Positions 2,854-61,193 are shown, counted from the first letter of the stretch. The stretch: 64,000 bases of DNA from a virus (IMGVR_UViG_2724679237_000005:32001-96000); one strand, 5' to 3'. Notes: a model not told the origin generated them from the letters alone. Made by a program: numbers and translations.

Positions 2854-2869
2854 ATAAGTAATTACTTAT
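2854..2869. promoter_or_regulatory. perfect 16-bp palindrome ATAAGTAATTACTTAT upstream of thyA (member of ACTTACTTAT motif family)
   Basis: read directly; 16 nt upstream of thyA start. Confidence 0.5.
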
Positions 2870-2912
2870 TCATTGCGTGAGTTTACATTTATTGAGGGGA
2901 CAAGGCCAGATA

Positions 2913-2945
2913 GATAAAAAAATGGTGGCCATAGGCCACCAAAAA
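2913..2945 (-). terminator. rho-independent terminator after NTP-pyrophosphatase gene
   Basis: 8-bp stem tggtggcc/ggccacca followed by T-run on minus strand. Confidence 0.55.
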
Positions 2946-3009
2946 CGAATAGTTGTTTCAGGAATTTAACGCGCCAACACAATATACATAGATAGATAAC
3001 TACCTACAA

Positions 3010-3879
3010 TTATTTTTTGATCATTCCATACATTGCTGAGGATTTAGCTTGCTCAACAAAGGAGGATAAATCGACATCACTATAGGTTGGAGACTTCAGA
3101 ATCTTTCCATCGGAAATTCGAAAACCGATCATCTTATCGGTGCCATCAGCATGGCGGAATCCCAGATCTGAAGAGTCGTATTTGCAGTTGGCCACAGCCT
3201 GGCGACGTTCCTCGACATCAGCAGGCCATAATTTTGTCATGTTCGACCGATGAATTTCGCCAACCAGCTCGACTACATTGATACCGAGGAAATCAGCCAG
3301 TCGATAGGTCATCATGCACGCCACATAGATTTTGTTCATGACACGGCGCAGTTCCTGAATCAGTTCAGAATCCTTAACAGTCTTGTTCTCAAGTTTATCT
3401 GCCAGCTCTTCGAGCATACATGACGCCTCACGAGCTTCCTGAAATGGCATTGCCATATCATCGAAAACAGTGTTACCGGGCACAAAAATTGTCTGCATAA
3501 AGCGATCAATGCTCTGTTCCTGCGTGTAATAGGTCATGCCGGTAGAAATACCACCTTTGATGGCGACCATCGTACCAACACCAACGTATAAAAAGTCGGC
3601 CATTGCATCCAGCAGTTGCTCAATATCCCCATTCATTGCGGCTGGAATACCTTCCACTACAGCTTCTTCATGAATCAGGCTTGCACGGAGACGAAGCAGC
3701 TCTGGTGTCGGCATAACGCGTCTCGGATGCTGGAAGAGTTCATGAAACTGATCGACCATCTTGTAAATACTTTCAGTAGCTACACCATGACCTTCATGCA
3801 ACTCATATGGTTCTGGCTTAAATCCAATGAGACGATCGGTGGCAAGTTTCAGGTGGTCAGTCAGTTTGGTAAAGTTCAT
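3010..3879 (-). CDS. putative all-alpha NTP pyrophosphohydrolase (MazG or dimeric dUTPase-like)
   Basis: EExxE-type acidic helical motifs (LIHEEAVVEG, MLEELADKLE); start reassigned to internal ATG with AAGGAA RBS because upstream part overlaps nrdB. Confidence 0.4.
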   Translation of the reverse strand: MNFTKLTDHLKLATDRLIGFKPEPYELHEGHGVATESIYKMVDQFHELFQHPRRVMPTPELLRLRASLIHEEAVVEGIPAAMNGDIEQLLDAMADFLYVGVGTMVAIKGGISTGMTYYTQEQSIDRFMQTIFVPGNTVFDDMAMPFQEAREASCMLEELADKLENKTVKDSELIQELRRVMNKIYVACMMTYRLADFLGINVVELVGEIHRSNMTKLWPADVEERRQAVANCKYDSSDLGFRHADGTDKMIGFRISDGKILKSPTYSDVDLSSFVEQAKSSAMYGMIKK

Positions 3880-3956
3880 GCTAGTTTTGTTCCTTCTTAA
3901 TTCTTGTGATCCATTGTGGCCCAGCGTTGCCAGGCCACATAATGCTTTGTATCGGT

Positions 3957-5129: not shown

Positions 5130-5148
5130 AAACAAGTTGTTATCTTAT
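5130..5148 (-). promoter_or_regulatory. conserved palindromic element AAACAAnTTGTTnTCTTAT (site 1, upstream of nrdB)
   Basis: motif recurs at 23251, 29287, 42815, 45744. Confidence 0.5.
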
Positions 5149-5199: not shown

Positions 5200-5204
5200 A
5201 TATG

Positions 5205-7562: not shown

Positions 7563-7593
7563 TTAATAGATAAGCACTTACCTATCAATGAGA

Positions 7594-12137: not shown

Positions 12138-12391
12138 GTGTTTTTCCTTTGTGGTTATTTTGATACAAATTTTAAGAGCAATGAGAAGGTAAACAACTAT
12201 GCATAACGGTATGTTAGGAATGAAACGAGCGTCTTAATATACAAAATTTATAAGTAAGTATATACCTATTTGTTGTGGCGCAACTTTGCTTGTCTGTATG
12301 ACTAAAAATAAGACAGGATCACTGTAGAACGCTATGAGAGCTATTTTGAGGGGGCGTAGATTCTATCTACGCCAATATACGATCTGGAGGG

Positions 12392-13235: not shown

Positions 13236-13341
13236 GTATGCTGCCAGCGGTAATTGATAGTCTGTCAACGGTTCGCCGTATGCTGCCAACTGTTTTTGGT
13301 ATGCTGCCAGCGGCAAATCAAGTATGCTGTCAGCGGTTGAA
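13236..13341. repeat. upstream iteron set (4 copies of GTATGCTG(C/T)CAGCGG) of replication origin
   Basis: direct repeats at 13236, 13278 (degenerate), 13299, 13323 immediately 5' of repA. Confidence 0.7.
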
Positions 13342-13357
13342 TGACAAAGGTGTCCAC

Positions 13358-14452
13358 ATGTCCACAAAAAATAAAAAAGGTAAAAATAACAAAGAAGTAG
13401 AAGATAATCTCGACAACTTTGAAGAAGGTTCCCTTGAATTGTACACAGGGGAACTTGTCCCTAATAGCAACAATACAGTCCAACCAATTGCGTTGATGCG
13501 GCTGGGGTTGTTCGTGCCCACGCTCAAGGGGACAAAATACAGCAAGCGTAACAAGCCAAATGAGATCGATGCTTCAAAGGAGCTTGTTCAGCTCGAAGTA
13601 GCCCGTTCTGAAGGCTATTCCGATATCAAGATAACCGGTCCTCGTCTCGACATGGATCATGATTTCAAAACGTGGGTGGGCGTTGTGCGTTCGCTGGCAG
13701 AATACGGCGAACCTAACGGTCGTGTCGAGTTAAGCATCACGAAATTTGCGAAGTTTTGTGGCTATCCATCGTCACAGATCCGCAAAACACTCCGCGACCG
13801 GCTTACAAACAGTCTTTTGAAGATCATGCGTACAACTCTGTCTTTCCAGAGAACGTATGAAGAAAAGAACGTCGACGGCTCTAACAAGATCTCGCTTCTG
13901 ATGGTGCACCTCATCAATAGCGTGGACTACAACGAGCAGAAAGATACGGTGGTGTTCTATGCAGAACCGAAGCTGGCCGAACTATATCGCTTTGACCATA
14001 AGGTTCTTTTGCAGTTAAAGGTTATCAATAAGCTACCACGCAAAGAAACAGCACAGGCTCTGTACACCTTCATCGAAAGTCTTCCAACCAAGCCTGCGCC
14101 GGTATCGCTTGCTCGATTGCGTGCGCGACTCAATTTGAGTAGTAGGAATGTCAGCTCGCAGAATCAGACTATACGTAACGGCTTAAAAGCTCTCCAAGAT
14201 TTGGGCTATCTCGAATACAGCGAGATTAAGCGTGGGCGGTCGATCTATATCCAGATTCACAGCCGCAATCCAAAACTCAAAGTCGCACCGCCAAAACCTG
14301 AAGACATCGAACCCAAAAAACCAGATGAGAAAGCTGGGGAAATTGATGCCAAACAGAACATTATCAACAAGATAACCGAACTTTCGCAGAATTTGACGCC
14401 TGAAAATATCAAGATGATTGAGATCCTTTCCAATAGTCTCAAACTGCTTTGA
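13358..14452 (+). CDS. repA: plasmid-type replication initiator (RepA-like, iteron-binding)
   Basis: 364-aa ORF flanked on both sides by iterons; start set at ATG 13358 because ORF-track N-terminus overlaps the iterons. Confidence 0.65.
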   Translation: MSTKNKKGKNNKEVEDNLDNFEEGSLELYTGELVPNSNNTVQPIALMRLGLFVPTLKGTKYSKRNKPNEIDASKELVQLEVARSEGYSDIKITGPRLDMDHDFKTWVGVVRSLAEYGEPNGRVELSITKFAKFCGYPSSQIRKTLRDRLTNSLLKIMRTTLSFQRTYEEKNVDGSNKISLLMVHLINSVDYNEQKDTVVFYAEPKLAELYRFDHKVLLQLKVINKLPRKETAQALYTFIESLPTKPAPVSLARLRARLNLSSRNVSSQNQTIRNGLKALQDLGYLEYSEIKRGRSIYIQIHSRNPKLKVAPPKPEDIEPKKPDEKAGEIDAKQNIINKITELSQNLTPENIKMIEILSNSLKLL

Positions 14453-14985: not shown

Positions 14986-15030
14986 CGACTATGAAATATG
15001 ACTGCGGAACGAGCCGCAGTCAGTTTGCAT

Positions 15031-15243
15031 TTAGTGTATTTTCTTCAACAGACCCCAAAGTGTTCCGGCTTTTGTAGTCAGTTTTCCTGTTTCTGGATCG
15101 TACATACGCCATTCACGCCGCTGGTGGACGATATACCCATCTTCACGTTCCAGACGCTCAAGAACGCCAGGCTGCTTGAAACCCTTAGCACGCCAGTATC
15201 CGCTTGTTTTCTCGATTTCCAGACCTGCTAGTGTTAATGCCAT
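15031..15243 (-). CDS. hypothetical protein
   Basis: 70-aa ORF. Confidence 0.35.
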   Translation of the reverse strand: MALTLAGLEIEKTSGYWRAKGFKQPGVLERLEREDGYIVHQRREWRMYDPETGKLTTKAGTLWGLLKKIH

Positions 15244-15578
15244 TATCCAACCTCCTTGCAGTCATCGAAAAGGTAGCTTTGCTGAGAAGCGTGAACGCCA
15301 TAGAAGCCCTTGTATTTGTTGTATACGAAGTGATCTTCTCCGACGCCGGTTAATTTGCCATTACGGTTTGTGAGATATGGGGATGACAATACTCGATCGT
15401 CACGCACAACATAGAACTGGTCGCCGCTGTCTACGACCATCGCGCCATATGGTGCTTTTATGACGTCGGTAAGAGCGCCATTCTTAACGTCGGCTACAGA
15501 CATTTCACACTGATAAACAGTGGTGTCGGCCACAACGATCGAAGAAAGGAACAACAGCGCGAATGGGATGGCCTTCAT
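15243..15578 (-). CDS. secreted hypothetical protein
   Basis: N-terminal signal-peptide-like segment MKAIPFALLFLSSIVVA. Confidence 0.5.
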   Translation of the reverse strand: MKAIPFALLFLSSIVVADTTVYQCEMSVADVKNGALTDVIKAPYGAMVVDSGDQFYVVRDDRVLSSPYLTNRNGKLTGVGEDHFVYNKYKGFYGVHASQQSYLFDDCKEVG

Positions 15579-15754
15579 GCTGCCACCTCTTTGATTACAT
15601 CAAATGCTGAATTAAATACGAGCACGATAGCCAAAGCGTTTATGACTACGTCGTTCACCGGGGAAAAGACTTTACGAATGACACCAGTGAAAATGCTGTC
15701 GATGACAAAAGCTATTGACACGATGAGTAACAAGTATTCAATAAAAATCTTCAT
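15575..15754 (-). CDS. small membrane protein
   Basis: 59-codon ORF (below ORF-track cutoff), hydrophobic, stop overlaps downstream ATG (ATGA). Confidence 0.35.
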   Translation of the reverse strand: MKIFIEYLLLIVSIAFVIDSIFTGVIRKVFSPVNDVVINALAIVLVFNSAFDVIKEVAA

Positions 15755-15793
15755 GATAGGTAGATACTAACTTATATAAATTTTACTGTAAAC

Positions 15794-16069
15794 TCACTCA
15801 AAAGTGCTGATGCTTAAAATACGCTCAAGATGTGCGGCATCTTCATCACTGATTTGTTGAGTCTCTTCTACGTACCAACAGTTGCCGTTATGCCAACAAA
15901 CACCATCATCATCAACCATCACTGAATCAGCGTCATGACCTGTATATTCAACGAGAATACGCTGGATCAGCGCGTCAGTTTCCTCGTCGTTAAGGCCATT
16001 GGCTTTGACCATAAAAAGCGGAAACACGTCATAGACAGTGCTGGTAACGATTCGAACTAAAACTCTCAT
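15794..16069 (-). CDS. hypothetical protein
   Basis: 91-aa ORF preceded by conserved AAAAGGAAAAATAC leader. Confidence 0.45.
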   Translation of the reverse strand: MRVLVRIVTSTVYDVFPLFMVKANGLNDEETDALIQRILVEYTGHDADSVMVDDDGVCWHNGNCWYVEETQQISDEDAAHLERILSISTFE

Positions 16070-16124
16070 GTATTTTTCCTTTTGTGGTTAGTGTTTACTT
16101 ATTTTGTTAGTTATGAATAGGCGA

Positions 16125-16550
16125 TCAATCTTCTTGTTTAGGGAAAAACTGTTCAATAACTCTGTCAACGGCTGTGTCTATATGGAGTAGATGCCACACA
16201 ACCATATCTTTGCTCCCCATGCCTTGTGTGAATATCACGTCATACTTACGCCATGCGCAGTGGAACCAATATGCTGAGTCATCAATTGGTAAATCCTCTC
16301 CCGCCTCTTTGAAGTATTTCAGCAGCATTGCTTGCTCTGCCGTTGGCGTTGGGCCTATTTCCTGAGCGTACATACGGATAAATCGCTGCCAGTCTGTCTC
16401 GTCGGTGGTCGGATCTGGTGGATTCATTTCGGCGATAGCGTTTCGTAGCTGATGCGCCCAATCAGGTTCAGGAAAGCCTTTTGATACTTCATCATCAATA
16501 ACATCCAGAGCCGCGTTTGCGGCATCGTAGAGTTTCTTAATTGCTGCCAT
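16125..16550 (-). CDS. hypothetical protein
   Basis: 141-aa acidic ORF. Confidence 0.5.
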   Translation of the reverse strand: MAAIKKLYDAANAALDVIDDEVSKGFPEPDWAHQLRNAIAEMNPPDPTTDETDWQRFIRMYAQEIGPTPTAEQAMLLKYFKEAGEDLPIDDSAYWFHCAWRKYDVIFTQGMGSKDMVVWHLLHIDTAVDRVIEQFFPKQED

Positions 16551-16613
16551 GTTTTACTTCTCCTTATAAATAGGAAAATAATCACCTTTGAAAAAAATAA
16601 AGCAAAGATATAT

Positions 16614-16880
16614 TCACTCCGATACAAGACGTTTATATGCTTCAATATCTCGCCGTGCTTCACCGAGCTTCCTCCTTAGATCCATATTTTCCAATTCAAG
16701 TTTCTCCATGTCTTTTTGGTATCGATCGCGGTGTTCTTTCCATGCTTTTCGATACGCCTTCATGTATGTCGTATTAGCTTTTCTCTTTGCCTGACGAACA
16801 GCATGGTGGTTTTCTATAAACCAGTCAGGGTCGTTAAATGCGACCAACGCCAACCACTTCACCAATCCCTTTGTCTTCAC
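16614..16880 (-). CDS. hypothetical protein
   Basis: 88-aa basic ORF; overlaps alternative small lipoprotein ORF. Confidence 0.3.
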   Translation of the reverse strand: MKTKGLVKWLALVAFNDPDWFIENHHAVRQAKRKANTTYMKAYRKAWKEHRDRYQKDMEKLELENMDLRRKLGEARRDIEAYKRLVSE

Positions 16881-16989
16881 CTAATTTGTTTACTTTGATG
16901 CCAACGTATCCAGGCTCCACGCGATCGCAGCCAGTAAGACCCATTGTGCAAATAGCCGCCAGAGCAACTGCAAGTAAACCTTTCTTCAT
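16834..16989 (-). CDS. small lipoprotein candidate
   Basis: MKKGLLAVALAAICTMGLTGC signal peptide with lipobox; 51 codons. Confidence 0.3.
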   Translation of the reverse strand: MKKGLLAVALAAICTMGLTGCDRVEPGYVGIKVNKLGEDKGIGEVVGVGRI

Positions 16990-16992
16990 TAC

Positions 16993-17193
16993 TTATTTCC
17001 CCTTTGCTTTGATTAATGAGTTGATAAACTTACGACCAGCAATAAGACCGATTACAGGAGCACCAAAACCAACGATAACTCCAAACATGACGGCTAAATC
17101 ACTCTTGGTAGAAATCAGCGACGGAACCAGTAAACCGTAGATGAGAGCCACTGAAAGGCCTGTGGCTACTGCCAATAGATAGATTTTGATCAT
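16993..17193 (-). CDS. small membrane protein (2 predicted TM helices)
   Basis: 66-aa hydrophobic ORF. Confidence 0.45.
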   Translation of the reverse strand: MIKIYLLAVATGLSVALIYGLLVPSLISTKSDLAVMFGVIVGFGAPVIGLIAGRKFINSLIKAKGK

Positions 17194-17253
17194 GTGTTTT
17201 CCTATGTGGTTGTTATGCGAAAATAATAAGTAAGTACTTATATATTTTCAAGA

Positions 17254-17281
17254 GATAAAAAAGGCGTCCTGTGGACGCCTT
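17254..17281 (-). terminator. rho-independent terminator after recombinase gene
   Basis: stem aaggcgtcc/ggacgcctt followed by T6 on minus strand. Confidence 0.65.
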
Positions 17282-17285
17282 GTGT

Positions 17286-18359
17286 TTACTCTTCTACTGA
17301 CTCGGTGGGGTTGTCTTTTGCTCTTCGGTCGTCGATTGCCTGCAAAGCCGCAATGATTTCAGCCAGTGGCTTCTCCCGATACATCTCGACGATCTGCGAT
17401 TTGGTGTATTTCTTGTCACCAATTTCAACTCGCCCGCTGGCGTTCTTTGGCAGGTATCCTTCTTCCAGCATGTACTCGACGAGCGATTCGATAACGTCGA
17501 GGCCACGAGTAGGATCGAAGTAGAATTTCCAGGTGCATTTGCCATACGGTGGTGCAACTTTGTTTTTGATGCATTCTGCGCCTACGTCCTGGCCGATCTT
17601 CTCTTTACCATCCTTCATCACCGATGCACCAAGACGGATACGTACAGAAGCGTAGAACTTCGGTGAATCCCCACCTGGCGACGTAGTAGGGTCGCCAAAC
17701 ATTACACCGATTTTTGTGCGAACCTGATTCAAGAAGATGATGCAGGCGTTGTATTTGCGTGCCCACAAAGCCAGAGTAGGGAAGTTCGCACTCGTCGCAC
17801 GAGCCAGTGCCGTATTGTCGTTCATGTTTAGCTGATCTTTGTCTTTGGCAGTGCCTTCAGCCATCTTTTCGAACTTCTCGGCTTTGGAGTTCGGAACCAT
17901 AGACGCAAGAGAGTCAGCCACGATACAGATTGGTGCTGATTCGGGGATAAGCTCTTCATCACGAACCAATTTAAGTATTGTGCCGATCAACTCTACAGAG
18001 TCTTCGAAGGTATCTGGCTGCTTGTATACCCACTGACCGTCATCCTCATCTGCGTTCAGGCCATTGGCGACAGCCAGGCCAACGTCAAAACTGTTTTCAT
18101 GATCGAGGAATACCGCCAGACCATCTTGTTTTTGAGCGGAGATCATCGCTGCTGTTGCAAGGAACGTTTTCCCTGCACTTGGAGGACCGAATACTTCGAC
18201 GATACGACCACATGGGAAGCCGCCATCGTAACGACCAGAAATAGCTTTGTTTAACGGTGGAAAGCCTGTATCAATCCAATGAGTTACTTTCTGAATTTCG
18301 TCGTTGCTACCGATTTTCTTTTTCAGAGCAAGTGCCAGTGCGGATTTTCCTTTTGCCAT
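17286..18359 (-). CDS. RecA/UvsX-like recombinase
   Basis: Walker A GPPSAGKT in RecA-like context, Walker B IVADSLAS. Confidence 0.8.
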   Translation of the reverse strand: MAKGKSALALALKKKIGSNDEIQKVTHWIDTGFPPLNKAISGRYDGGFPCGRIVEVFGPPSAGKTFLATAAMISAQKQDGLAVFLDHENSFDVGLAVANGLNADEDDGQWVYKQPDTFEDSVELIGTILKLVRDEELIPESAPICIVADSLASMVPNSKAEKFEKMAEGTAKDKDQLNMNDNTALARATSANFPTLALWARKYNACIIFLNQVRTKIGVMFGDPTTSPGGDSPKFYASVRIRLGASVMKDGKEKIGQDVGAECIKNKVAPPYGKCTWKFYFDPTRGLDVIESLVEYMLEEGYLPKNASGRVEIGDKKYTKSQIVEMYREKPLAEIIAALQAIDDRRAKDNPTESVEE

Positions 18360-18361
18360 GA

Positions 18362-18634
18362 TCAGGCTCCTTTTGTTTCGTTGATTCGTTTTAAAGCGGC
18401 GGATTCATCGAATACAATCGCATCGTGGTTAAGGAGTCTGGATACACGAGCGAGGATTTTTACGACCTGCTCGCTGACTAATCCAAACTCGCGATCTGTC
18501 GCTTTCATTCCGGCAGCGCCTAGAATTGACGGCAGTGCGATGACAGCGTACTCACCGTGATAAAAGACAATCTCTTTTGCCAGTTGGGCAGGGGTGGTTG
18601 TAGCGCCATTGATAATCGATTTAAGCATTAGCAA
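18362..18634 (-). CDS. hypothetical protein
   Basis: 90-aa ORF between recombinase and FEN. Confidence 0.4.
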   Translation of the reverse strand: MLMLKSIINGATTTPAQLAKEIVFYHGEYAVIALPSILGAAGMKATDREFGLVSEQVVKILARVSRLLNHDAIVFDESAALKRINETKGA

Positions 18635-19572: not shown

Positions 19573-19585
19573 CGGTACATTCCTT

Positions 19586-19614
19586 CCAAAAAGTAAGGCG
19601 TCCGTAGACGCCTT
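19586..19614 (-). terminator. rho-independent terminator after SSB-like gene
   Basis: stem aaggcgtc/gacgcctt then T-run on minus strand. Confidence 0.6.
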
Positions 19615-19632
19615 ACTGGTCACGTAATGGGA

Positions 19633-20661: not shown

Positions 20662-20778
20662 GTGTTTCTCCTTGTTGTGATTTGGCCGATGGCGCTATGC
20701 GCGTTGGGCTTTCGTTCATTCGTGGCTCTTTCGAGCTGTTAAATGATAGATCAGTACTTACTTATTATCTATCAAAAA

Positions 20779-27064: not shown

Positions 27065-27159
27065 GCGTTTTTCCTTTGTTTTCTAATGAGCGTTCAACTT
27101 CTTATATAAATATATCATTAACTATCGTAAGTGGTTACTTATCATTAAGGCTGTTTTGT

Positions 27160-29579: not shown

Positions 29580-29830
29580 TCAATCAATCCATTCTAACTT
29601 ATACTATGGTAAGGAATACTACTAAAATTTGTATCAATACTGAATACATCTATATCAGATGCAAGTTAATTTTCTTACCTATTTTGGGCTGGTTTTTCTC
29701 CATGCATGGACCTTTGCTCGGTCTTACAAGTGCCTGCCGAAAAAAATGATAATAGCTTTACAACCCTAATCTTTGATGTAATATCGGTAAGCACTTACCA
29801 GAGAGAATTAAACGCGCAAAGGTTGTAATA

Positions 29831-30217
29831 ATGTCTGACAACAAGATTGAATTTATAGAAAGTCGCTATGCTGCTTTTATCGCAGGGCTGATTGAATCCT
29901 CACCTATGAGTCAGGCCCAAATAGCCAGACTTATTGGTTATAAAAATGCCAACAACCTTTCTTTAATTAAAAGTGGCAAAATTCCTTTGCCTATCGATAA
30001 GGTTCGTCCGCTGGCGCTGGCGCTGGGTATTGAGCCAAGTCGTCTTATGATGATGGTGCTGGAAGAACGCCAACCTGAACTCGCAGCATTTTTATACAAA
30101 GAAGGCACCGCTCCTCTTAACGAGGACGAAAAACAGGTTCTTGCTGCATATAACGAGCGATTCGGTAAAGAGAAAGGCGCATCACAAAAGGTTGTTGAGG
30201 CCATAAAGTCTCTATGA
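29831..30217 (+). CDS. XRE-family helix-turn-helix transcriptional regulator
   Basis: SQAQIARLIGYKNANNLSLIKSGK HTH; convergent with recombinase gene. Confidence 0.7.
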   Translation: MSDNKIEFIESRYAAFIAGLIESSPMSQAQIARLIGYKNANNLSLIKSGKIPLPIDKVRPLALALGIEPSRLMMMVLEERQPELAAFLYKEGTAPLNEDEKQVLAAYNERFGKEKGASQKVVEAIKSL

Positions 30218-31771: not shown

Positions 31772-31945
31772 TGTTACCTCATAGAATTGATATGCAACTT
31801 TACTTACAAAGAAGATAGGTATGTGCATACTTATCATTGCAGTCTGCATTATAAAGCTATTAAAGCCTCGATCAATCTATTAATTAAGGCATTGTTTGGT
31901 TAACATTACCCTAATATTTTATAGTTAGTAGAGTGAAATACATAC

Positions 31946-34054: not shown

Positions 34055-34832
34055 AATTCAGCACTGCCAGTATTTATTACTCAACAGTGCCAATCGCGAC
34101 GGTTTAGTTTCTGCCAGGAAACGCACCGCTACTTGCACTTTTCGTTAGTGCCAGACGCTTTCGACTTCGCTCAATAGTAGAAGGCAAAATCTTTAAGTAG
34201 ATGATGTTTCTGAGGACAGCACCTACTTTGTAATTTATACAATGTGATGTATGGAATCATTTGTTGTGAAAACAGGCACCAATGGCAACAGTGGTTAAAC
34301 CTACACAACAATCCCGTCTTCACAACGTTGAGGCCACTACTCCGATTGAATGTTTGCCCAACATGTTACATATCAACGCTCGCCGGTATCTCTGTGAATA
34401 GAACCTTAGAATTGATAAAAATGTAATGGCCTCAACGTTGTGTGCTGGCTAACCATACCAGCCGGGCTACGTCGCCGCTTTTTAACCCAGTATAAACGAC
34501 ATAATTGAACAAAATGACGTAACAGGATGGGCGGTCAGTGGCTAAGAATCCGGGAGTCATATGGAGTTGAAAATATACCAACCGCCCATTCTGTTACTTC
34601 ATCGGAGGGAACATGAATGTTCCCTCCTGCGTTCTGCAATCACACTCGCTCAGTGTGTCCCATTTCGGTAACGAGGCTGGAAACTGACCTCGCTGGTGTT
34701 TGGCTTATTAGGCTACTGCCAGATAGACTTCTTCGTTTGCACTTGTATTTAAGTTCAAACAGTCGCGTCTCAACGAAAACAAAGTCATCTTATACATAAA
34801 AGATAAGTAAGTAAACACTTATCGCTGTGTTT

Positions 34833-37445: not shown

Positions 37446-37500
37446 AAATAATCTTGTGCTTACCTATCATTATTTGCGTAAAAAACGACACACTGAGAGC

Positions 37501-38283: not shown

Positions 38284-38408
38284 ACCAACTCCTAGCTAAC
38301 GGATGAAAGTATTCTTACAAAAACTTAAGTATGTATCTACTTATCATTTTAGATGCAATAGTTCTTTATACTAAGATGCCGGGCATATCCTCAGCCCAGC
38401 ATTCACCT

Positions 38409-42793: not shown

Positions 42794-42814
42794 GTGCTTT
42801 CCTTTGTTTTTTTT

Positions 42815-42833: not shown

Positions 42834-42838
42834 ATTAG

Positions 42839-43579: not shown

Positions 43580-43860
43580 GTGGCTCACCTGGTAGGTAGT
43601 TACTTACTTATCACAATGAGCGGATGATAGCGACTGGTGGCAGTTTTTGGAAGTGGAAACGGAAGGGAGTTGTTCTGGTGGTGTCTTTTAAAAGACCTGC
43701 TTCCGTATATATTTAATAAGTTACTTATTATTTATATATACAGAAGCAGGCATAACTTGTCGTCTTAGACGCCCAGAAGCTCTACACTTTGAGCCTGTTA
43801 AATTGATTAAAACCTATGTGTAAAATAGAACGCATTAGTCAGTAGCAAAGAGATGCAATA

Positions 43861-44628: not shown

Positions 44629-44645
44629 AGCTGACACTGTAGTTA

Positions 44646-44683
44646 TGCATTGGCGCAATGTACGCGCCAATGCATGATTTTTA
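44646..44683 (+). terminator. rho-independent terminator after GIY-YIG gene
   Basis: 12-bp perfect stem atgcattggcgc/gcgccaatgcat, 7-nt loop, T-run. Confidence 0.55.
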
Positions 44684-45040: not shown

Positions 45041-45708
45041 TATTCTTCTTCCTCCAGACTCAACAGATAATCTACAAATTCTTCAAACTCGGCTTCCGCC
45101 TTTTTGTCGCGCTCGCTACCGGTCATTTCAAAGATAGAACGACCAGACTCTTCCGCATCATCATAGACGTTGCGGTTATATAGATTGACTGGCGCAGACT
45201 CGATTCCAAACGTCTCAACAATCTCTTTAGCCGCCAGAATGCGAGACACTTGTGATGGCAAAGCCGGGCACTGGTTCATGACCGCGCGGACCTTCACTTT
45301 ATCGTTTACATTGCGAACATTGTCGATAATAGGATCGATGTCACGTAAAGATTTCAAATCACGACGCTTAGGACGCAGCGGGATAATGATAACGTCAGCC
45401 ATCAGCATCGCTTGTCGCTGAATTTCGGAGTCAAAGCCACCAGCATCTACCACTACATACTCAGCTCTACCCTGAAGCGATTTTAGGTGCTTAATGATGT
45501 CATCCTGAACGTATGCAAAAGGAATCAGCTCAAGGTCTTCGTTCTGTCGACGGTCTTCACACCAGCTCGTTGTCGTGCGCTGAATATCTATATCGGTGAT
45601 ATAAACCTTCTTCTTCTTTTTGACTTTCAGGCAAACGGCAATTTGCTGGGCAACGGTGGATTTGCCAGGCCCGCCCTTTGTGCCGCCAACCACAAAGATC
45701 TTGGTCAT
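45040..45708 (-). CDS. parA: ParA/ParF-type partition ATPase
   Basis: deviant Walker A GGTKGGPGKST, short type Ib form. Confidence 0.8.
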   Translation of the reverse strand: MTKIFVVGGTKGGPGKSTVAQQIAVCLKVKKKKKVYITDIDIQRTTTSWCEDRRQNEDLELIPFAYVQDDIIKHLKSLQGRAEYVVVDAGGFDSEIQRQAMLMADVIIIPLRPKRRDLKSLRDIDPIIDNVRNVNDKVKVRAVMNQCPALPSQVSRILAAKEIVETFGIESAPVNLYNRNVYDDAEESGRSIFEMTGSERDKKAEAEFEEFVDYLLSLEEEE

Positions 45709-45743
45709 TGGAGAGTTCCCTTTGCGTATATAATTATCGTCTG

Positions 45744-45762
45744 AAACAACTTGTTTTCTTAT
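45744..45762 (-). promoter_or_regulatory. same element, site 5 (upstream of parA)
   Basis: AAACAACTTGTTTTCTTAT. Confidence 0.5.
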
Positions 45763-45854
45763 ATGTGATATAGCCTAAATGCCTACGGCTGTGGTGTAAA
45801 GGTTAAATGGTAGGTGCTGCCTTAGAATTTTTAGGCGAGAATCAATGGCTGTTA

Positions 45855-45888
45855 ACAAAAAAGGCGACCAAAGTCGCCTGATTTTTAA
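45855..45888 (-). terminator. rho-independent terminator
   Basis: stem aggcgac/gtcgcct flanked by A-run and T-run. Confidence 0.5.
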
Positions 45889-46637
45889 TCTTTTAGGTAT
45901 AAACCTACTGGAGTTCTTGTTTTGCGGGAGATGATAAGTACGATAAATTTCTGAACGTTAACTTGCACTTTGTTTGGGAGCCAAGAGCTTAACTCTGCAT
46001 CAAGCAACAATCCTCTGTTCCACGGCAAAAATCCGGTTTCTTTCCCCATCCCGTACTCGCCTAACACATCCTCGAACGTTTCTGTTTTGGCATTGTATAT
46101 ACGCACATCGCCGGTTCGCATGAGAGGCCCTGCCCAGATCTTAGCACCAGGAATGGTTTGTGTATCGTCGCAGACTAAATGCTCATACCAATGAAGAAGA
46201 AAGAGATAGGTACGGTGACACAATCCTCGCTGACGACGCTCTCTGACAGTTTCGACACCAGCTACCTGGTAACATTCGATCTCATTACCGTCTTCAACAA
46301 AACTATATTCACGCAGAGCTATCCTACCAGCGATCGTATTTTTGTTTTCGTCCAGAAGCCCGGACTGGAGCACCTCTTTGATAATCTCTTCTTCAGGGGC
46401 ATCTTCATCCGCTCGATCTAAGATGAATTCGCTCAGGTCGCCTTGGTCGCGCGCACCTACACGTTCCATAGAGACATACAGGCAAATGTCATCTTCTGGT
46501 TCAATGATTTCAATTTCTGAGATTTTATAGAGGGAGGCTTCATTGATAAGAAAGCCAAAACGAACAACACGAGTCTCCCCTTTATGAGGAAACTCGCTTA
46601 GATCTTTTGAATATGCGCTATCTAGTGTAGGAGCCAT
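45885..46637 (-). CDS. hypothetical protein
   Basis: 250-aa ORF. Confidence 0.45.
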   Translation of the reverse strand: MAPTLDSAYSKDLSEFPHKGETRVVRFGFLINEASLYKISEIEIIEPEDDICLYVSMERVGARDQGDLSEFILDRADEDAPEEEIIKEVLQSGLLDENKNTIAGRIALREYSFVEDGNEIECYQVAGVETVRERRQRGLCHRTYLFLLHWYEHLVCDDTQTIPGAKIWAGPLMRTGDVRIYNAKTETFEDVLGEYGMGKETGFLPWNRGLLLDAELSSWLPNKVQVNVQKFIVLIISRKTRTPVGLYLKD

Positions 46638-47005
46638 TTTGTAGCAGAATCATCAGCCTTAACCGTGCTGACAATGCTACCATGATTGCGTAAGAAGCGG
46701 CGAATAGAATGTTCAATAACCTCCGAAAAAGCCTCGATAAAACGAGACAGCTCAGGGTACTGTTTAGCTGGCTTGACTACAAAACGAACACGACCATTCA
46801 GGTAAATTGCTTCAGCTAATGGCTTCACGCTTGCACCAGCGCGCTCAACATCGTCTTTGAAGGTAACGATGAAGCGTGAGTCTTCCGGTTCAATAGCGTC
46901 ATTATTGAGCTTACGTACTTCAAGCTTGTGCTGATTCAGCACATGAGTCTCGATAATACTCGTGCAATCGCGAATAGTTTGTATAGAACGTTTCTCGTTC
47001 AGCAT
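46622..47005 (-). CDS. hypothetical protein
   Basis: 127-aa ORF with AAGGTGGA RBS. Confidence 0.45.
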   Translation of the reverse strand: MLNEKRSIQTIRDCTSIIETHVLNQHKLEVRKLNNDAIEPEDSRFIVTFKDDVERAGASVKPLAEAIYLNGRVRFVVKPAKQYPELSRFIEAFSEVIEHSIRRFLRNHGSIVSTVKADDSATKWLLH

Positions 47006-47229
47006 GTGTCCACCTTAGCCGTTAACACAAGTGTCATTGCGGCACCCCTCTCGGGGTTGAAGGCTACGAGGATGCGTAGCCTGTATGTGCCCACTTACGT
47101 GGATGCCTAATAAATCTACATCAAATTACTAAATGATTCAACATGAGCTTGAGTGAACAGGCGTGTATATGAGTGAAGATGCCATCTTTAGGATAAAAGG
47201 TAAACTGAGACCACTCATCAATCATCGAC

Positions 47230-47457
47230 TCAGTTCAGGTGCCCCCACTCACACAGCCTTTCACCTATCGTATTGTGGATAAGCAACTGTCGCTCCGTTT
47301 CCTCAGTCATAAAATCCTCTCTACTCACATAGATAGGATTTGCAGCATCGCAGAATAGCACGCCTGGAGCCTGCGTCTTAATCACGCACCCATTTATCAA
47401 ACAGCTCGCGATGAACACCAGAGGCATCTTTTTGCCGCACTTCATTAACCGTTTCAT
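47230..47457 (-). CDS. o-spanin (Rz1-like lipoprotein) in alternative frame overlapping Rz
   Basis: signal peptide with lipobox LINGC; start codon uncertain. Confidence 0.45.
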   Translation of the reverse strand: MKRLMKCGKKMPLVFIASCLINGCVIKTQAPGVLFCDAANPIYVSREDFMTEETERQLLIHNTIGERLCEWGHLN

Positions 47458-47629
47458 TTTTGACATCCACTGTGCTTTGAAGTCGTTTTCTGTCTTCCTG
47501 TTTTGCCTTCTCTTCCATTGCTCGTCGCGCCGCATTTCCGCCCATCGTGTAAGCGCCGACCAGAACGAAAAGAACGGCAGCCAGCGTAATCAAAGCAACT
47601 TTTAGCTTTGTCATCAGGCTGCCTAGCAT
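47378..47629 (-). CDS. i-spanin (Rz-like)
   Basis: N-terminal TM helix followed by charged coiled-coil region; AAAGGGA RBS. Confidence 0.55.
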   Translation of the reverse strand: MLGSLMTKLKVALITLAAVLFVLVGAYTMGGNAARRAMEEKAKQEDRKRLQSTVDVKNETVNEVRQKDASGVHRELFDKWVRD

Positions 47630-47630
47630 A

Positions 47631-48323
47631 TTAGACCATCCCTTTCTGGTGTCTTCTTACCTGCGACCAGGCGATAAATCCAGCCACAACAATAGTGGCA
47701 ATACCGAAGATGATGCGTACTGTATCCCCGCTAGAGATATGACCTTGTGCTTTATCCATAGCAGCGGAAACCTGCGGCATAACATCGGCCAGCTGCGCCA
47801 GACCAATACCTGCTGTAACAGTTGCGCCTGCTGTTTCTTTAGTTACAGGAACAGCCTTCACGGTTTTCACCGGCTTAACGACGCCAGCTCGACGCAGACC
47901 TTCCTCAATAACTTCTGCCGCATACCAGGTGTTCAGCGTTTTTAGCGGACCTCGCCCATTCTCATGGCGAATGATTGCCTCAACCAAAGGTCGAAGAATG
48001 TCGTAATCATGCAGATCGATAATCATGTCTGCGGTTACACCAACGGCTTTAGACACCTCATTAATGTAGGCGTCAGTATTGTTTTCATTCGGCGGTGCCC
48101 AGCGTTCAATAACTTCACGAATGGTATCGATACTTGAGCCGTCTTTTGCGCGACGTTTGTCGTGGTAGGTAATTAGAGTCACCGCCAGCGCACGAATCCC
48201 CCAAACAGGGTCTTTAAACGTGCAAAAGCGCGGTTCGTCTGGATTCGCAACCAGACCTTGCCACGGTGATCCTTTATCAAGATTACCGGGGTTATTATTA
48301 CGAATGCCTCTCGGAGTCTTCAT
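47631..48323 (-). CDS. putative endolysin (peptidoglycan hydrolase) with C-terminal hydrophobic segment
   Basis: position between holin-like gene and spanins; IRNNNPGNL motif; enzymatic family not confirmed. Confidence 0.4.
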   Translation of the reverse strand: MKTPRGIRNNNPGNLDKGSPWQGLVANPDEPRFCTFKDPVWGIRALAVTLITYHDKRRAKDGSSIDTIREVIERWAPPNENNTDAYINEVSKAVGVTADMIIDLHDYDILRPLVEAIIRHENGRGPLKTLNTWYAAEVIEEGLRRAGVVKPVKTVKAVPVTKETAGATVTAGIGLAQLADVMPQVSAAMDKAQGHISSGDTVRIIFGIATIVVAGFIAWSQVRRHQKGMV

Positions 48324-48336
48324 CCTTGATCTCCTG

Positions 48337-48660
48337 TTATTGCAGTCCATTTTTTACGCCATACGCGGCTAACCCCAAAAGCAGTGCAGTAATAATGAAC
48401 GACGTTATTTTAGAAACAATGCCGCCAAAGAACCCACTGGAGATGGAATCTAACCGGTTAAGGAGCTTGTCCAGGTTGGAGTGTTGAATACTATGTTGCG
48501 CTGGGGTCATATCACCAAAGTAGGTTTTCAGCTGATCATTGACCTCCTGGCCAATTTCTTCACGTAGCTCTTTGCCTAATTTGCCAACAACCTCCCGAGC
48601 AACGATCGCGGCAATACGCTCAACTTGCTCTGTTGTAACGCCCGCCATCTCGTTCGACAT
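48337..48660 (-). CDS. holin-like small membrane protein
   Basis: single C-terminal TM helix; first gene of lysis cluster; GGAGG RBS. Confidence 0.35.
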   Translation of the reverse strand: MSNEMAGVTTEQVERIAAIVAREVVGKLGKELREEIGQEVNDQLKTYFGDMTPAQHSIQHSNLDKLLNRLDSISSGFFGGIVSKITSFIITALLLGLAAYGVKNGLQ

Positions 48661-48738
48661 GTTTTCCTCCATGAAAAGTCAAATCGGGATGGCGGATTTA
48701 TATCACATTTCACCCTTTTGTTGTAGGTGTGTACTTAC

Positions 48739-48975
48739 CTACCATTCAGCATTGCAACGGACTGATGAGAAAGCACCTACTCCTACCCATCGCCAGTTAT
48801 AGATGCTACCCGCTTTGTATAAGGTATAGTCGTTCACTTTTTTAACAGCATATATGGGTATGACTGTCTCCTGTCCACCAATGATAGCCTCACCATAACA
48901 TATAGGTGTCGGCAATTTCTGGCAGCCAGTAAGAGAGAGAACAACAGCTATTGTTAGAAATAATCTTTTCATCAT
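48739..48975 (-). CDS. lipoprotein (candidate superinfection-exclusion factor)
   Basis: signal peptide with lipobox LTGC; sits between tail-fiber accessory genes and lysis genes. Confidence 0.5.
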   Translation of the reverse strand: MMKRLFLTIAVVLSLTGCQKLPTPICYGEAIIGGQETVIPIYAVKKVNDYTLYKAGSIYNWRWVGVGAFSSVRCNAEW

Positions 48976-48982
48976 TTACTCA

Positions 48983-49591
48983 TCAGTTATACAGATTTCT
49001 ATTTATTACCGGTACTCTGCCATTTACGCTAAAACTATGGCCGCCATTAAGTTGGTTTACGAATATAGAGCTAACAGTATTTCCATATGCCGCATATCCA
49101 TAAACCATTGTCATGGCCCCGCCCGGTACTGGAACCGCGAACACATTTGCATATGTTGGGATTATCGCTGGCGGGTAATCAAAAACATGCCCTCCAGAAC
49201 TGTTCCACTCCGTATTATTAAGAAAGGTAAATGAAAGTGGGATATTTGCCGTATTATAGATCTCCTCTCCTCGCGCATTGAAAAAACTCATGCCCCAAGT
49301 TTCTTTTTTGGCTATACCTTTCGAAAATACGTATATCGTGGCACTAGAGTCGCTACCCTGACCTCCGAAACTGTAAATCACCTGGTTGTTACGCACTATT
49401 CTGTTGGCTATTAATGAAACAGCTTTCGAATAGGCAACAAAAATCATCGGTGAACGATCTGGAGATATTTGGGTGTTAAACTCTGTCCCGCCGGACAAAG
49501 AAACAACCTGCTTTCTCTGAAAAACGATAGGAGACAAAGAAGGAGACATCCAGACCTTCCCGTCAGATCGATATATCTTGCTTCCGTACAT
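48983..49591 (-). CDS. hypothetical protein downstream of tail fiber
   Basis: 202-aa ORF. Confidence 0.45.
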   Translation of the reverse strand: MYGSKIYRSDGKVWMSPSLSPIVFQRKQVVSLSGGTEFNTQISPDRSPMIFVAYSKAVSLIANRIVRNNQVIYSFGGQGSDSSATIYVFSKGIAKKETWGMSFFNARGEEIYNTANIPLSFTFLNNTEWNSSGGHVFDYPPAIIPTYANVFAVPVPGGAMTMVYGYAAYGNTVSSIFVNQLNGGHSFSVNGRVPVINRNLYN

Positions 49592-54204: not shown

Positions 54205-54296
54205 GTTGAATATGCTCCTTGATTTGGTGGGCTATCCTTGCCCACCATTAAGTATGTACCTACTTATTTTTACCGATATAAATATTTTTTTCTACA

Positions 54297-59024: not shown

Positions 59025-59041
59025 GTTCAAAAAATCCTTGT

Positions 59042-59635
59042 TTACATTAGCTGGTCAATCGTGATTGAAGAACTCACAACCTGTGAGCCAACCAGAATTT
59101 CCTCGCCATAGATAAGTTGTACTGGGTTGCCCTGGTTTTCTGTATTTTGAGGGCCGTCGAAATAATAAGAGTTCGAGTTATCTGCCTGTCTCACACTTTC
59201 GTTAGTGGCTTGCGGCGATATGATTTGTGATATGCCGCCCATCATCAGTGACAAACCGAGAGGTGCTAAAGCAGGCATCACTACCGCCGATACAACCAAC
59301 AAAGCGGCCCCTACTACCGTCTGAAACCACCCAAAAGCAGATCCACCGCTTCCTCGCGGAACAGGTGTAATGCGGATTTTGGCAATGTTGTCAGACTGCC
59401 CCATCATCTGATATTCACTCTCGTCCACAGACCACTTGTGGCCCTGTTTATTGGTGATCTGGATGTGGTATCTGTCATAGGTTTTGATGTTGCGCTTCAT
59501 CCATGCTTTAAACCCTGGCTTGTTGGCCTCAATTAAATCCAGAGCCTGTTTTGTATTGCGCACCTTTAGATGCCAGTGGCGGCCAAAATGTTTGGCCATA
59601 GGGCCGCCAAGCTGCACATGAACTAACTCAGACAC
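59042..59635 (-). CDS. tail assembly protein I-like
   Basis: position between K-like and J-like genes; hydrophobic C-terminal half; GTG start. Confidence 0.55.
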   Translation of the reverse strand: MSELVHVQLGGPMAKHFGRHWHLKVRNTKQALDLIEANKPGFKAWMKRNIKTYDRYHIQITNKQGHKWSVDESEYQMMGQSDNIAKIRITPVPRGSGGSAFGWFQTVVGAALLVVSAVVMPALAPLGLSLMMGGISQIISPQATNESVRQADNSNSYYFDGPQNTENQGNPVQLIYGEEILVGSQVVSSSITIDQLM

Positions 59636-60420
59636 GTCTCATCTCCCTTGAGCAAGTCTCTGTGACGCAAGTGATGCGTCGTATGTTTCTGATACATCCC
59701 GCCGTAATAAGCACGACAACTAAGGCGGTCGATCTGGTGATGAAGAATCATTCCATCGCCGATATAAACCGCACAGTGGTCAGGCATTTTTCCGTATTGG
59801 ATAAAGAAGACGTCCCCACGTTGAGGTTCTGTTCCGGACGCAAGCCGTACCAATCCTTCGTTTCGGTAGTTCTGATCGAGAATGTCGTTATCGCCGGTGT
59901 ACCACGATGGAATATGCAGGTGTGCGTTCGGGTTTAGTTCGACGTTAAACTCACGCTTCAAATAGTCCCGACACAACATCCAGCAATCAAATACGCCAAA
60001 TACATACGGTCTGCCCAGGTATGGCATTTCGAAACCATCAGGTGTGATCACATTCATCTCGCTAAAATGGAAAGGGGCATCTCCCTCAACATTCTTGCGA
60101 ATAGCCAGAATCATCCACGGAACTTCCGTCGCTTCGCAGCCTGCACGATCGGCATAAGATGCTTCTGCTGATTCATCAGTATGTGAATGCCAGATTGCGA
60201 TAACATCACCCGCATCCTCTGCCGCCATAATGTCGTCAACGTGCATTACAAAAGTGTTCTGCGGGTTCTCCGAAACATTCCGCGCTTCCATAAAGCGATA
60301 TTTGTCGCCATTAGTTCTAACCAGAAAGCCACACGCTTCATTAGGGTAGCGATTTATGGCGCAGAGATAGATTTGCTGCATAACGTCAGAGCCAAGCTCA
60401 GGGATTGCTTTATTACCCAT
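59623..60420 (-). CDS. tail assembly protein K-like (MPN/JAB + NlpC/P60 domains)
   Basis: HSHTDESAEAS (JAMM-like) and Cys/His NlpC-like motifs; start overlaps L stop. Confidence 0.75.
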   Translation of the reverse strand: MGNKAIPELGSDVMQQIYLCAINRYPNEACGFLVRTNGDKYRFMEARNVSENPQNTFVMHVDDIMAAEDAGDVIAIWHSHTDESAEASYADRAGCEATEVPWMILAIRKNVEGDAPFHFSEMNVITPDGFEMPYLGRPYVFGVFDCWMLCRDYLKREFNVELNPNAHLHIPSWYTGDNDILDQNYRNEGLVRLASGTEPQRGDVFFIQYGKMPDHCAVYIGDGMILHHQIDRLSCRAYYGGMYQKHTTHHLRHRDLLKGDETCLS

Positions 60421-61111
60421 ACCGCGTAGCTCCAATAAATCCGCCAAAATGGATCACACCGTCGGCAAAATAATTCCGACGCGCATTACAGGCGTCATAA
60501 CGTTTTGTGCAGTAATCCGCACCAGACATAGACGTCTGCTGGTTATTTTTGTCGAAATATGGACCGGTATAGCCGCATTCTGGCCCTCGGTATTTCCACG
60601 GGCAGGTGTTTTTAATGATCTGACGATACGGCAGTTGCACCCCCATCAAATCGAACACACTGGACAATTCAAACTCGACAACCTGATGAGTTTCGAGAGT
60701 TTTCTGTTCGATAAACCACATTTCATCCGGAAAATGTTGGTTTGGATCTGCTGTTGGGTTGCCGTCTTTAAAATTAACGGCATCGAGGAAGCGAGCCAGC
60801 GTCATCTTGCGAATAATGCGGCAGCCAACAAGATCGTCGTTCGCCTGAACTTCCGCAGAGACGGTTCCGGCAAAGTTCGATACCTGAATTTTTGGACGTG
60901 GCAACGTTCCCTGGCCAGTTTTGTCAAAGCCTGATGCTTTGATTGGCCACGGCTCGTATGTCACTCCTTGCCAGACGACCGGTTGCATCAGTTCGTTTGT
61001 TCCGGCGTGGAAGAATAGCTTTCCCCCTGAAGTTGTGTTCGACATATCCAATACGAACAACTCAATGAGTGCAGAGGGAGATAAGCTCTGAATATCAGCT
61101 TTAATTCCCAT
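60413..61111 (-). CDS. minor tail protein L-like
   Basis: VVWQGVTYEPWPIKASGF, RFLDAVNF, NTCPWKYRGPECGYTGP match lambda L; AAGGA RBS. Confidence 0.85.
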   Translation of the reverse strand: MGIKADIQSLSPSALIELFVLDMSNTTSGGKLFFHAGTNELMQPVVWQGVTYEPWPIKASGFDKTGQGTLPRPKIQVSNFAGTVSAEVQANDDLVGCRIIRKMTLARFLDAVNFKDGNPTADPNQHFPDEMWFIEQKTLETHQVVEFELSSVFDLMGVQLPYRQIIKNTCPWKYRGPECGYTGPYFDKNNQQTSMSGADYCTKRYDACNARRNYFADGVIHFGGFIGATRYG

Positions 61112-61193
61112 TGTTTCATCCTTGAAATAAGTAGGCGCTAACATCCTGTCAGCGCCACAATGATAGTAAATTAGTACTTACTTATCCAGATGC

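Follow-up and report, generated by a model that had tools for sequence, protein, structure and literature searches.

What does a short sequence do that recurs between the genes of a virus, ahead of one gene after another? The question arises from a stretch of 64,000 nucleotides of viral DNA (IMGVR_UViG_2724679237_000005:32001-96000; the whole stretch is called the window here), in which an earlier note, made from the sequence alone, had listed a recurrent intergenic word as a candidate element-specific promoter, with an operator or an RNA-processing role as fallbacks. We propose, with about even confidence, that this word belongs to a dispersed network of repressor operators, here termed motif A, and that the protein binding it is most likely the Xre-type helix-turn-helix (HTH) repressor encoded at 29831-30217.

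By its sequence, the window is assigned to an SSU5-like phage-plasmid. Two of its segments (15000-22000 and 40000-49000) are 96-98% identical to the Escherichia phages CMS-2020a, PhiR41_1 and Cyrano, and ~80% identical to Salmonella phage SSU5. Protein mapping sets the window at ~12-76 kb on the reverse strand of Cyrano, the plasmid-prophage carried by E. coli LF82, which is why nearly all genes are on the window minus strand. Intergenic DNA makes up 9.7% of the window. SSU5-like phage-plasmids have a wide distribution across E. coli, Salmonella, Klebsiella, Enterobacter and Cronobacter and are common in clinical Enterobacteriaceae (a 3.4-kb SSU5 segment matched 822 PLSDB records); they are known carriers of resistance genes (PMC9600943), with blaCTX-M-15 in some. 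The searchable literature yielded no description of gene regulation in these elements, and none of motif A either.

The repetition itself is real and non-random. The 11-mer TACTTACTTAT (at most one mismatch) was matched 10 times in the window against 0.80 expected from dinucleotide shuffles, and 0 of 100 shuffles reached 10. It covers the centre and a single arm of an imperfect palindrome of 20-24 bp (motif A; consensus ATARGTAAGT/ACTTACYTAT) with TA steps every 4 bp; this palindrome, noted earlier for several copies, is the real unit. Because motif A is palindromic, the 11-mer is found in both orientations (plus strand at 15765, 20755, 43601, 54257 and 61175; minus strand at 12250, 17226 and 34803; both strands at 2854), which argues against a strand-specific promoter word and is not consistent with the single coding-strand reading GATAAGTAAGTA that had been proposed. 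A 24-bp palindromic matrix, obtained by expectation-maximisation on the Cyrano genome, gave 19 local maxima above 12 bits in the window (0.74 expected) and 17 above 14 bits (0.2 expected), counts that are not fully independent since the matrix was trained on the near-identical Cyrano. Thirteen of the 14 coordinates listed earlier are genuine (2854, 12248, 15761, 16090, 17226, 20754, 27133, 34801, 38335, 43600, 48728, 54252 and 61173), the fourteenth (43715) being the centre of a different, 55-bp inverted repeat. Copies absent from that list are found at 2986-3009, 7564-7587 and 31813-31836, together with a weak one (37446-37469) and a core-only one (29786-29799).

All 17 genuine copies in the window are intergenic, though only 9.7% of it is (binomial p = 5e-18). 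The palindrome holds stop codons in two of three frames; allowing for that, the expected intergenic share rises to ~0.24 and p to ~3e-11, and the intergenic position noted earlier is confirmed. The sites often adjoin an upstream stop codon, or a Shine-Dalgarno sequence or ATG, and stand ahead of main-strand, lytic-side genes, i.e., upstream of minus-strand genes in the window as had been noticed (the gene then called 'thyA' is ThyX-type according to the Cyrano annotation). In Cyrano, motif A was found in no gap before the minus-strand (lysogeny and plasmid) genes and at none of the seven true convergent junctions.

The matrix finds 30 matches in Cyrano, 27 in SSU5 and 29 in the Klebsiella element pJN2-26, numbers that take in three copies per genome of a different long inverted repeat. 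Matches lie at orthologous gaps in all three while the flanks diverge, and when matched through the coding sequence that follows them, the sites fall into 22 orthologous groups. Several copies in pJN2-26 are perfect palindromes (e.g., TAATAGGTAAGTACTTACCTATTA), and one copy inside the 3' end of the portal gene is kept in Cyrano, SSU5 and pJN2-26. Scanning IMG/VR for the core 14-mer GGTAAGTACTTACC returned multiple copies only in SSU5-like contigs, in agreement with the supposed specificity for this element family; single matches in AT-rich phages fall in apparently conserved coding sequence and were rejected as occurrences outside the family. Of the 57 co-directional main-strand Cyrano gaps that span at least 25 bp, motif A is present in 23, a second palindrome (motif B, see below) in 12 and neither in 22; no gap has both, and every motif copy within the Cyrano structural gene block is of type A.

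The variation among copies suggests what is being recognised. Variable paired positions do not covary (Fisher test; positions 6/19, p = 0.46; 7/18, p = 0.68; 2/23, p = 0.77), and G-T mismatches are about as frequent as A-C mismatches (82 versus 71), indicating that pairing is not selected and that each half is selected towards one consensus. Neither half is favoured with respect to the direction of transcription: conservation is no better in the half closer to the upstream gene. Such independent halves are, on the sequence evidence, the signature of a symmetric dimer on duplex DNA and would fit a predicted dimeric DNA-binding protein; motif A has the two-fold symmetry and the independently conserved half-sites of a dimeric HTH repressor operator.

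The proposal of a promoter stands in part. Sigma-70-like matches pointing at genes overlap five copies in the window, in differing registers: the 17224 copy fills the spacer of TTGAAA-17-TATTAT (17251-17223), the 15754 copy overlaps matches at 15792-15764 (TTTACA-17-TAGTAT) and 15780-15753, the 7564 copy one at 7588-7560 (a terminator-like hairpin, 7559-7538, then follows), the 20744 copy TAGATA-17-TATCAT (20771-20743), and the 31813 copy lies at ~+5 to +28 of TTGATC-16-TATAAT (31875-31848). The motif itself is not a -10 or other promoter element: the palindrome is symmetric, its flanks offer no -35 or -10 at a fixed offset, and once aligned they hold no information beyond ~3 bp. At the palindrome edge, positions 20-25 spell TATYAT, which would pass for a fair -10, but the hexamer is present on either strand alike, and a TA-periodic palindrome readily gives TAnnnT hexamers on departing from consensus. 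Three promoter placements were tried and rejected: a -10 at site positions 20-25 scores equally on both strands (-10, 3.88 versus 3.78; -35, 2.66 versus 2.59), a promoter upstream of the site does not stand out against the reverse-strand control (p = 0.49), and a -10 at 26-44 nt downstream does not differ from the opposite-strand control (p = 0.33). An extended -10 stands just beyond the site at a few other copies; the 12248 site has one (TGnCATAAT) ~6 nt beyond it in SSU5 and pJN2-26, and the 38323 site is followed in the gene direction, after 3-4 nt, by the conserved, extended -10-like TGTAAGAAT. In 6-7 orthologous groups a Shine-Dalgarno sequence or start codon lies within 0-6 nt past the site (2852, 15754, 16085 and 43590 in the window; the terminase-portal gap, the dam gene and parB outside it), and a transcription start downstream of the motif is therefore impossible for those genes. 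An association with intrinsic terminators was also rejected, as terminator-like GC-rich hairpins are found near motif A in only 5 orthologous groups (3 downstream, 2 upstream). Of the roles suggested earlier, the operator fits best.

If motif A is an operator, which protein would bind it? The product of 29831-30217 is the only recognisable regulator in the window (Pfam HTH_19, weak; phrog_8 'transcriptional regulator', E = 6.6e-12). Its AlphaFold2 model (predicted local distance difference test, 78), a single Xre HTH with C-terminal helices, matches the Xre HTH domains of C-proteins, of a Salmonella phage repressor and of the lambda, P22 and 434 repressors; none of the solved structures matched it in sequence. 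Xre HTH proteins typically bind palindromic operators as dimers. Alleles that are only 56-70% identical keep the block IGYKN(A/P)NNLSLIKSGKIPLP essentially invariant; this block spans model helix 41-47, and its constancy matches that of the unchanged motif A. The family was found almost only on ~100-116 kb Enterobacteriaceae contigs, consistent with SSU5-like elements, and searches for distant relatives returned only sequences of at least 65% identity (repressor) and at least 77% (single-stranded DNA-binding, SSB, protein).

The link between this protein and the motif comes from the immunity region, where the predicted repressor promoter, TTTACA (29757-29762) -16- TAATAT (29779-29784), is followed at ~+1 by a copy of the inner palindrome, and GGTAAGTRCTTACC adjoins its -10 and -35. 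Four lineages share the core copy unchanged, and the block TGGTAAGTRCTTACCGATATTACA...TTGTAAAG does not vary between E. coli, Klebsiella and a third lineage, the remainder of the 250-bp region having diverged. Four of the 26 GGTAAG/CTTACC hexamers of the window lie within 190 bp of the immunity region, their densest cluster. As for a dimeric HTH repressor, there are thus a core copy at the regulator's own predicted promoter and clustered half-sites around it.

From these observations we infer the identity of the binder, repression as the direction of its effect and, at some copies, a block of elongation. In the plasmid-prophage state, ~17 sites in the window (27-30 in a whole genome), all in gaps that precede main-strand lytic-side genes, would be occupied by the repressor. 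At sites lying over sigma-70-like promoters (17224, 15754, 7564, 20744 and 31813), binding would block initiation. In gaps too short for a promoter (43590, and the terminase-portal gap outside the window), it could act only on transcription arriving from upstream, as a roadblock like that at mycobacteriophage stoperators, or possibly not at all. The weaker core copy at +1 of the repressor promoter would serve negative autoregulation.

SSU5, which is reported to be virulent, has no integrase, Xre repressor gene or 70-aa gene (the latter divergent from the repressor), while a 108-kb Enterobacter plasmid that is 99% identical to SSU5 in the flank (NZ_CP134672.1) carries all three. SSU5 is therefore a recent deletion derivative, and its intact motif A sites are in consequence uninformative. 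Comparing SSU5 42.6-42.8 kb with NZ_CP134672.1 3.4-9.4 kb, SSU5 is without a ~5.8-kb block holding phoH, grxA, a toxin, the integrase, the Xre repressor and the 70-aa gene; judging from this comparison, the loss of the block likely explains the virulent phenotype of SSU5.

Expression was taken from the per-gene RNA-seq table of PMC9928086 (LF82 Cyrano lysogen, macrophage 6 h). In the LF82(Cyrano) lysogen the repressor gene is at ~10x background and most genes behind A sites are at background. Rises limited to macrophages at 6 h are found from Cyrano genes 11 to 12, 55 to 56 and 59 to 60 (steps of 2.5 to 3.65 log2), and the units that begin at three A sites (Cyrano 12-13, 56-57 and 60-62) rank with the most strongly induced genes of the main strand. 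In these samples, the Cyrano gaps orthologous to the 15754 and 17224 sites show steps up of 3.65 and 3.6 log2, respectively, and CYRAN_46, the 70-aa gene divergent from that of the repressor, rises most of all main-strand genes (+6.4 log2). Drops occur across A gaps where the upstream gene is expressed (30 to 31, 34 to 35, 64 to 65, 16 to 17 and 5 to 6), several of them confounded by terminators or, among the first three, by another hairpin, and constitutive rises across the A gaps 33 to 34 and 80 to 81.

Motif B, the palindrome AAACAA-N-TTGTTT, has 5 matches in the window where 0.37 would be expected. Some 8 nt upstream of the palindrome stands a conserved extended -10 (TGnGATAAT), both belonging to a conserved cassette that reads ...GATAATaACACCAACAAGAAAACAAnTTGTTTAA..SD..ATG (SD, Shine-Dalgarno), sometimes with a second copy 51 bp upstream, and there are ~17-19 per genome within one mismatch. 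Motifs A and B are never found in one gap and are never swapped between lineages, the type being fixed at orthologous gaps. The genes behind motif B are silent in the lysogen, the parA operon excepted, and motif B is probably the operator of a second regulator.

Several points weigh against a repressor network built on motif A. Taken together, A gaps and other gaps show no difference in their gene-level expression steps (p >= 0.2), which are heterogeneous among A gaps, and several of the drops at A gaps coincide with ordinary terminators. Expression of CYRAN_34 reaches 4-5x background in the lysogen even though a 22-bit site covers the putative -35 region ahead of it. The B cassettes, too, are silent there, and motif A can therefore not account for all of the silencing. 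The core copy, on which the link between repressor and motif rests, is a single one, is without the outer ATA/TAT triplets and scores only 8.7 bits; by analogy with Cro in lambda, a different regulator could equally bind it to shut the repressor promoter. Finally, the exclusivity and fixity of motifs A and B is also the pattern of two promoter classes.

This last point leads to the main alternative, which we regard as unlikely, namely that motif A is the site of a lytic-cycle activator making middle or late promoters, like the Lpa-dependent promoters of P1 or other -35-less phage promoters; the edge TATYAT would then be the -10, and the core copy would switch the repressor off in lytic growth. 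Besides accounting for two classes of gap, it would agree with the type A of all copies in the Cyrano structural block and with the three A gaps showing induced steps, and the centre AAGT/ACTT resembles the '-22 box' AAGTNACTT of P1 late promoters, which is followed by TANNNT 4 bp on (AF234172). However, the -10-like hexamer stands equally on the opposite strand, the half-sites show no asymmetry, and a transcript starting ~7 nt past TATYAT cannot serve a gene whose Shine-Dalgarno sequence or ATG begins 0-6 nt past the site, as in 6-7 groups. A terminator-like hairpin directly past the site in three groups, a spacing 2 bp off that of P1, and overlapping promoter-like matches in differing registers also speak against it; tblastn with P1 Lpa (gp10) against Cyrano, SSU5, pJN2-26 and the window gave a best E of 1.0, and the core copy on the repressor promoter weakens this alternative further.

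It is improbable that another protein of the element binds motif A with a main role other than promoter control, either a ParB/KorB-like loader (for partition or genome-wide silencing) or a Cro-like product of the 70-aa gene at 29367-29579. The element encodes two ParB-like proteins and a ParA, one Cyrano copy of the motif (105105) stands 15 nt upstream of a ParB-like gene, and partition proteins with dispersed palindromic sites have precedents in KorB of RK2 and SopB of N15; the 70-aa gene has the classic Cro position and the strong induction reported above. Nevertheless, the ParB-like CYRAN_119 and CYRAN_120 are at background in the lysogen and so cannot act there in maintenance or silencing, and the 70-aa protein has no recognisable DNA-binding domain among Pfam and PHROG profile matches.

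Lastly, an action in RNA, as an RNase III-type processing hairpin (T7 has such intergenic hairpins), a 3' stabiliser or a weak bidirectional terminator, is very improbable: the palindrome does lie directly past stop codons with flanks mildly A-rich upstream and T-rich downstream, but sequence rather than pairing is conserved, G-U-compatible mismatches being no commoner than A-C ones, the stem is AT-rich with a T-run at a minority of sites only, convergent junctions, where terminators would be expected, are devoid of it, and the RNA hairpin was rejected on the absent covariation and the lack of an Rfam match; for want of covariation, the RNA-processing role suggested earlier is not supported.

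Returning to the repressor network, the two motifs together allow a wider scheme, which is possible but which we hold with more doubt than belief: ~100 kb of lytic genes would be silenced in two layers, an Xre dimer on ~30 palindromes in nearly every second gap, acting as an orientation-independent roadblock at promoter-less gaps, and a second factor holding motif B at ~+6 of 15-20 conserved extended -10 promoters. If true, the roadblock network would be a Gram-negative, symmetric counterpart of the mycobacteriophage stoperators. The operator consensus and its candidate repressor would also give a handle on immunity and heteroimmunity typing, on lysogeny maintenance and induction, and on the virulence of SSU5.

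Table 1. Motif copies and regulator gene in the window (a dot marks features without strand; bits refer to the 24-bp matrix).
Feature	Position	Strand	Bits	Context
Motif A, AGATAAGTAATTACTTATTCATTG	2852..2875	.	21.1	End 13 nt upstream of ThyX start (2838); orthologous copies in Cyrano, SSU5, pJN2-26
Motif A	2986..3009	.	19.3	Adjoins MazG stop; second copy of MazG-ThyX gap; terminator 2941-2923 between both copies
Motif A	7564..7587	.	22.8	6 nt past RuvC-like stop, 43 nt before NrdA start
Motif A	12248..12271	.	23.8	110 nt upstream of SbcD
Motif A	15754..15777	.	20.7	Adjoins ATG of CYR60-like gene, without Shine-Dalgarno
Motif A, weak	16085..16108	.	14.5	15 nt upstream of CYR59-like start
Motif A, best copy, TAATAAGTAAGTACTTATATATTT	17224..17247	.	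25.8	Past RecA/UvsX terminator (17281-17261)
Motif A	20744..20767	.	22.6	11 nt past UvsY stop, 82 nt before gp32-like SSB start
Motif A, weak	27125..27148	.	14.6	Between CobT and CobS; second weak match 27104-27127
Core-only palindrome, GGTAAGCACTTACC	29786..29799	.	8.7	Inner 14 bp of motif A; ~+1 of predicted repressor promoter
Xre-type HTH regulator, 128 aa, candidate binding protein	29831..30217	+		CYRAN_45 homologue; divergent from 70-aa gene 29367-29579
Motif A	31813..31836	.	20.5	41 nt upstream of glutaredoxin start
Motif A	34801..34824	.	21.1	8 nt past CYR39-like stop, ahead of tRNA cluster (34054-33401)
Motif A, weak	37446..37469	.	11.2	One good half only; adjoins annotated CYR35-like start
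Motif A	38323..38346	.	19.2	39 nt upstream of CYR34-like start
Motif A	43590..43613	.	24.8	CYR31-like Shine-Dalgarno AGGTGA begins at site edge, ATG 10 nt away
Motif A	48721..48744	.	19.7	Overlaps orf78 stop; 60 nt upstream of holin start
Motif A	54246..54269	.	21.4	27 nt past J stop, 41 nt before tail-fibre start
Motif A	61164..61187	.	20.2	6 nt past M stop; then conserved hairpin with T-run before L coding region
Motif B	5130-5142			
Motif B	23251-23263			
Motif B	29288-29300			
Motif B	42815-42827			
Motif B	45744-45756			
Motif B	Cyrano 78-98 kb			Outside the window

Some neighbouring features deserve mention in their own right. The CYR60-like gene (a 59-aa membrane protein) has a conserved ATG (15752-15777 with the adjoining motif A) that no Shine-Dalgarno sequence precedes, and from TTTACA-17-TAGTAT its transcript would start ~0-3 nt before the ATG, which makes it a candidate leaderless mRNA. 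The 82-nt leader of the gp32-like SSB gene (20662-20743) is almost invariant in 43 distinct SSU5-like sequences, far above other intergenic DNA, with the conserved sequence AAGAGCCACGAA..CGAA.GCCC..GCGCA.AGCGCC...GGCCA.AATCACAACAAGGAG; by analogy it may be a site of translational autoregulation, for which T4 gene 32 provides a precedent. Between motif A and L, a hairpin (61100-61163; GGCGCT-N11-AGCGCC, then a T-run) is conserved, with compensatory changes in pJN2-26 (CAACGT...GACGTTG); within it lies the ATG at which the Cyrano annotation starts L, whereas the SSU5 annotation uses a later ATG.

The 55-bp repeat that gave rise to one of the earlier coordinates is a near-perfect inverted repeat at 43696-43750, CCTGCTTCCGTATATAT...ATATATACAGAAGCAGG, with arms at 43696-43712 and 43734-43750 and the centre AATAAGTTACTTATT. 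It occurs in three copies per genome in Cyrano, SSU5 and pJN2-26 (e.g., Cyrano 31177, 78097 and 108355) and stands after the parA operon, followed by a T-run; it may act as a terminator, or possibly in partition or packaging. The replication initiator (13238-14452, plus strand) is only 50% identical to Cyrano RepA and its flanking genes are 97-100% identical, a pattern that indicates a replicon swap, probably to a different incompatibility type. RecA/UvsX (17286-18359, minus strand) has 357 aa here versus 779 aa in Cyrano, and the best match aligns Cyrano residues 487-779 only; Cyrano RecA/UvsX thus seems to have an insertion that the window element lacks, possibly an intein.

How does such a network compare with known systems? 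Its nearest counterparts are the P1 C1 operators and the L5 operators and stoperators, from both of which motif A is set apart by its palindromy. The KorB OB sites of RK2 are about a dozen dispersed palindromes through which the plasmid backbone is globally repressed. KorB, however, is a ParB-family protein expressed in plasmid maintenance, whereas the ParB-like genes here are silent in the lysogen, i.e., in the plasmid state. The lambdoid Xre/Cro-CI repressors (lambda, 434, P22 c2) share with the present case a dimer-type palindrome of ~17-20 bp, a small gene divergent from that of the repressor, a site on the promoter of the repressor itself, and similarity of the HTH fold. Lambdoid phages have ~6 operators, confined to the immunity region, in contrast to the 27-30 copies of motif A spread genome-wide, with one full core copy in the immunity region.

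P1, itself a phage-plasmid, offers two comparisons. Seven P1 late promoters read from AF234172 all consist of AAGTNACTT (the 9-bp -22 box), N4 and TANNNT; like motif A, they are short palindromes with AAGT/ACTT arms beside a -10-like hexamer, dispersed before late genes. In motif A the centre is 8 bp instead of 9 and the gap to the hexamer 3 bp instead of 4, the palindrome extends to 20-24 bp with symmetric conservation, and many copies are too near the start codon; on this box geometry, together with the missing homologue, the Lpa system was rejected. The P1 C1 operators are closer in arrangement, many of them being distributed over a ~100-kb genome ahead of the lytic genes ssb, lpa and kilA/repL (P1 annotation). 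They are, in contrast, 17-bp, asymmetric and annotated beside promoters, and P1 late genes are on separate Lpa-dependent promoters, whereas motif A is also found within the structural gene block.

The stoperators of the Cluster A mycobacteriophage L5 also resemble motif A: one repressor acts at more than 20 genome-wide sites, some in promoters and many in short intergenic spaces (PMC9283540), and here we find 27-30 sites per genome, all 17 in the window intergenic. The parallel extends to virulent relatives, since D29, according to PMC5712189 a virulent deletion derivative when compared with L5, lost the repressor and kept the sites, as did SSU5 relative to the 99%-identical plasmids. In L5, a monomer with two DNA-binding domains (HTH and 'Stoperator') recognises asymmetric sites of 13 bp that work in one orientation, the direction of transcription, whereas motif A is a 20-24 bp palindrome with equivalent halves and no orientation bias, its candidate binder is a small protein of 128 aa with a single Xre-type HTH, and the elongation block is one that we infer. 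Should elongation indeed be blocked at the promoter-less copies, silencing of the stoperator type would cease to be peculiar to actinobacteriophages.

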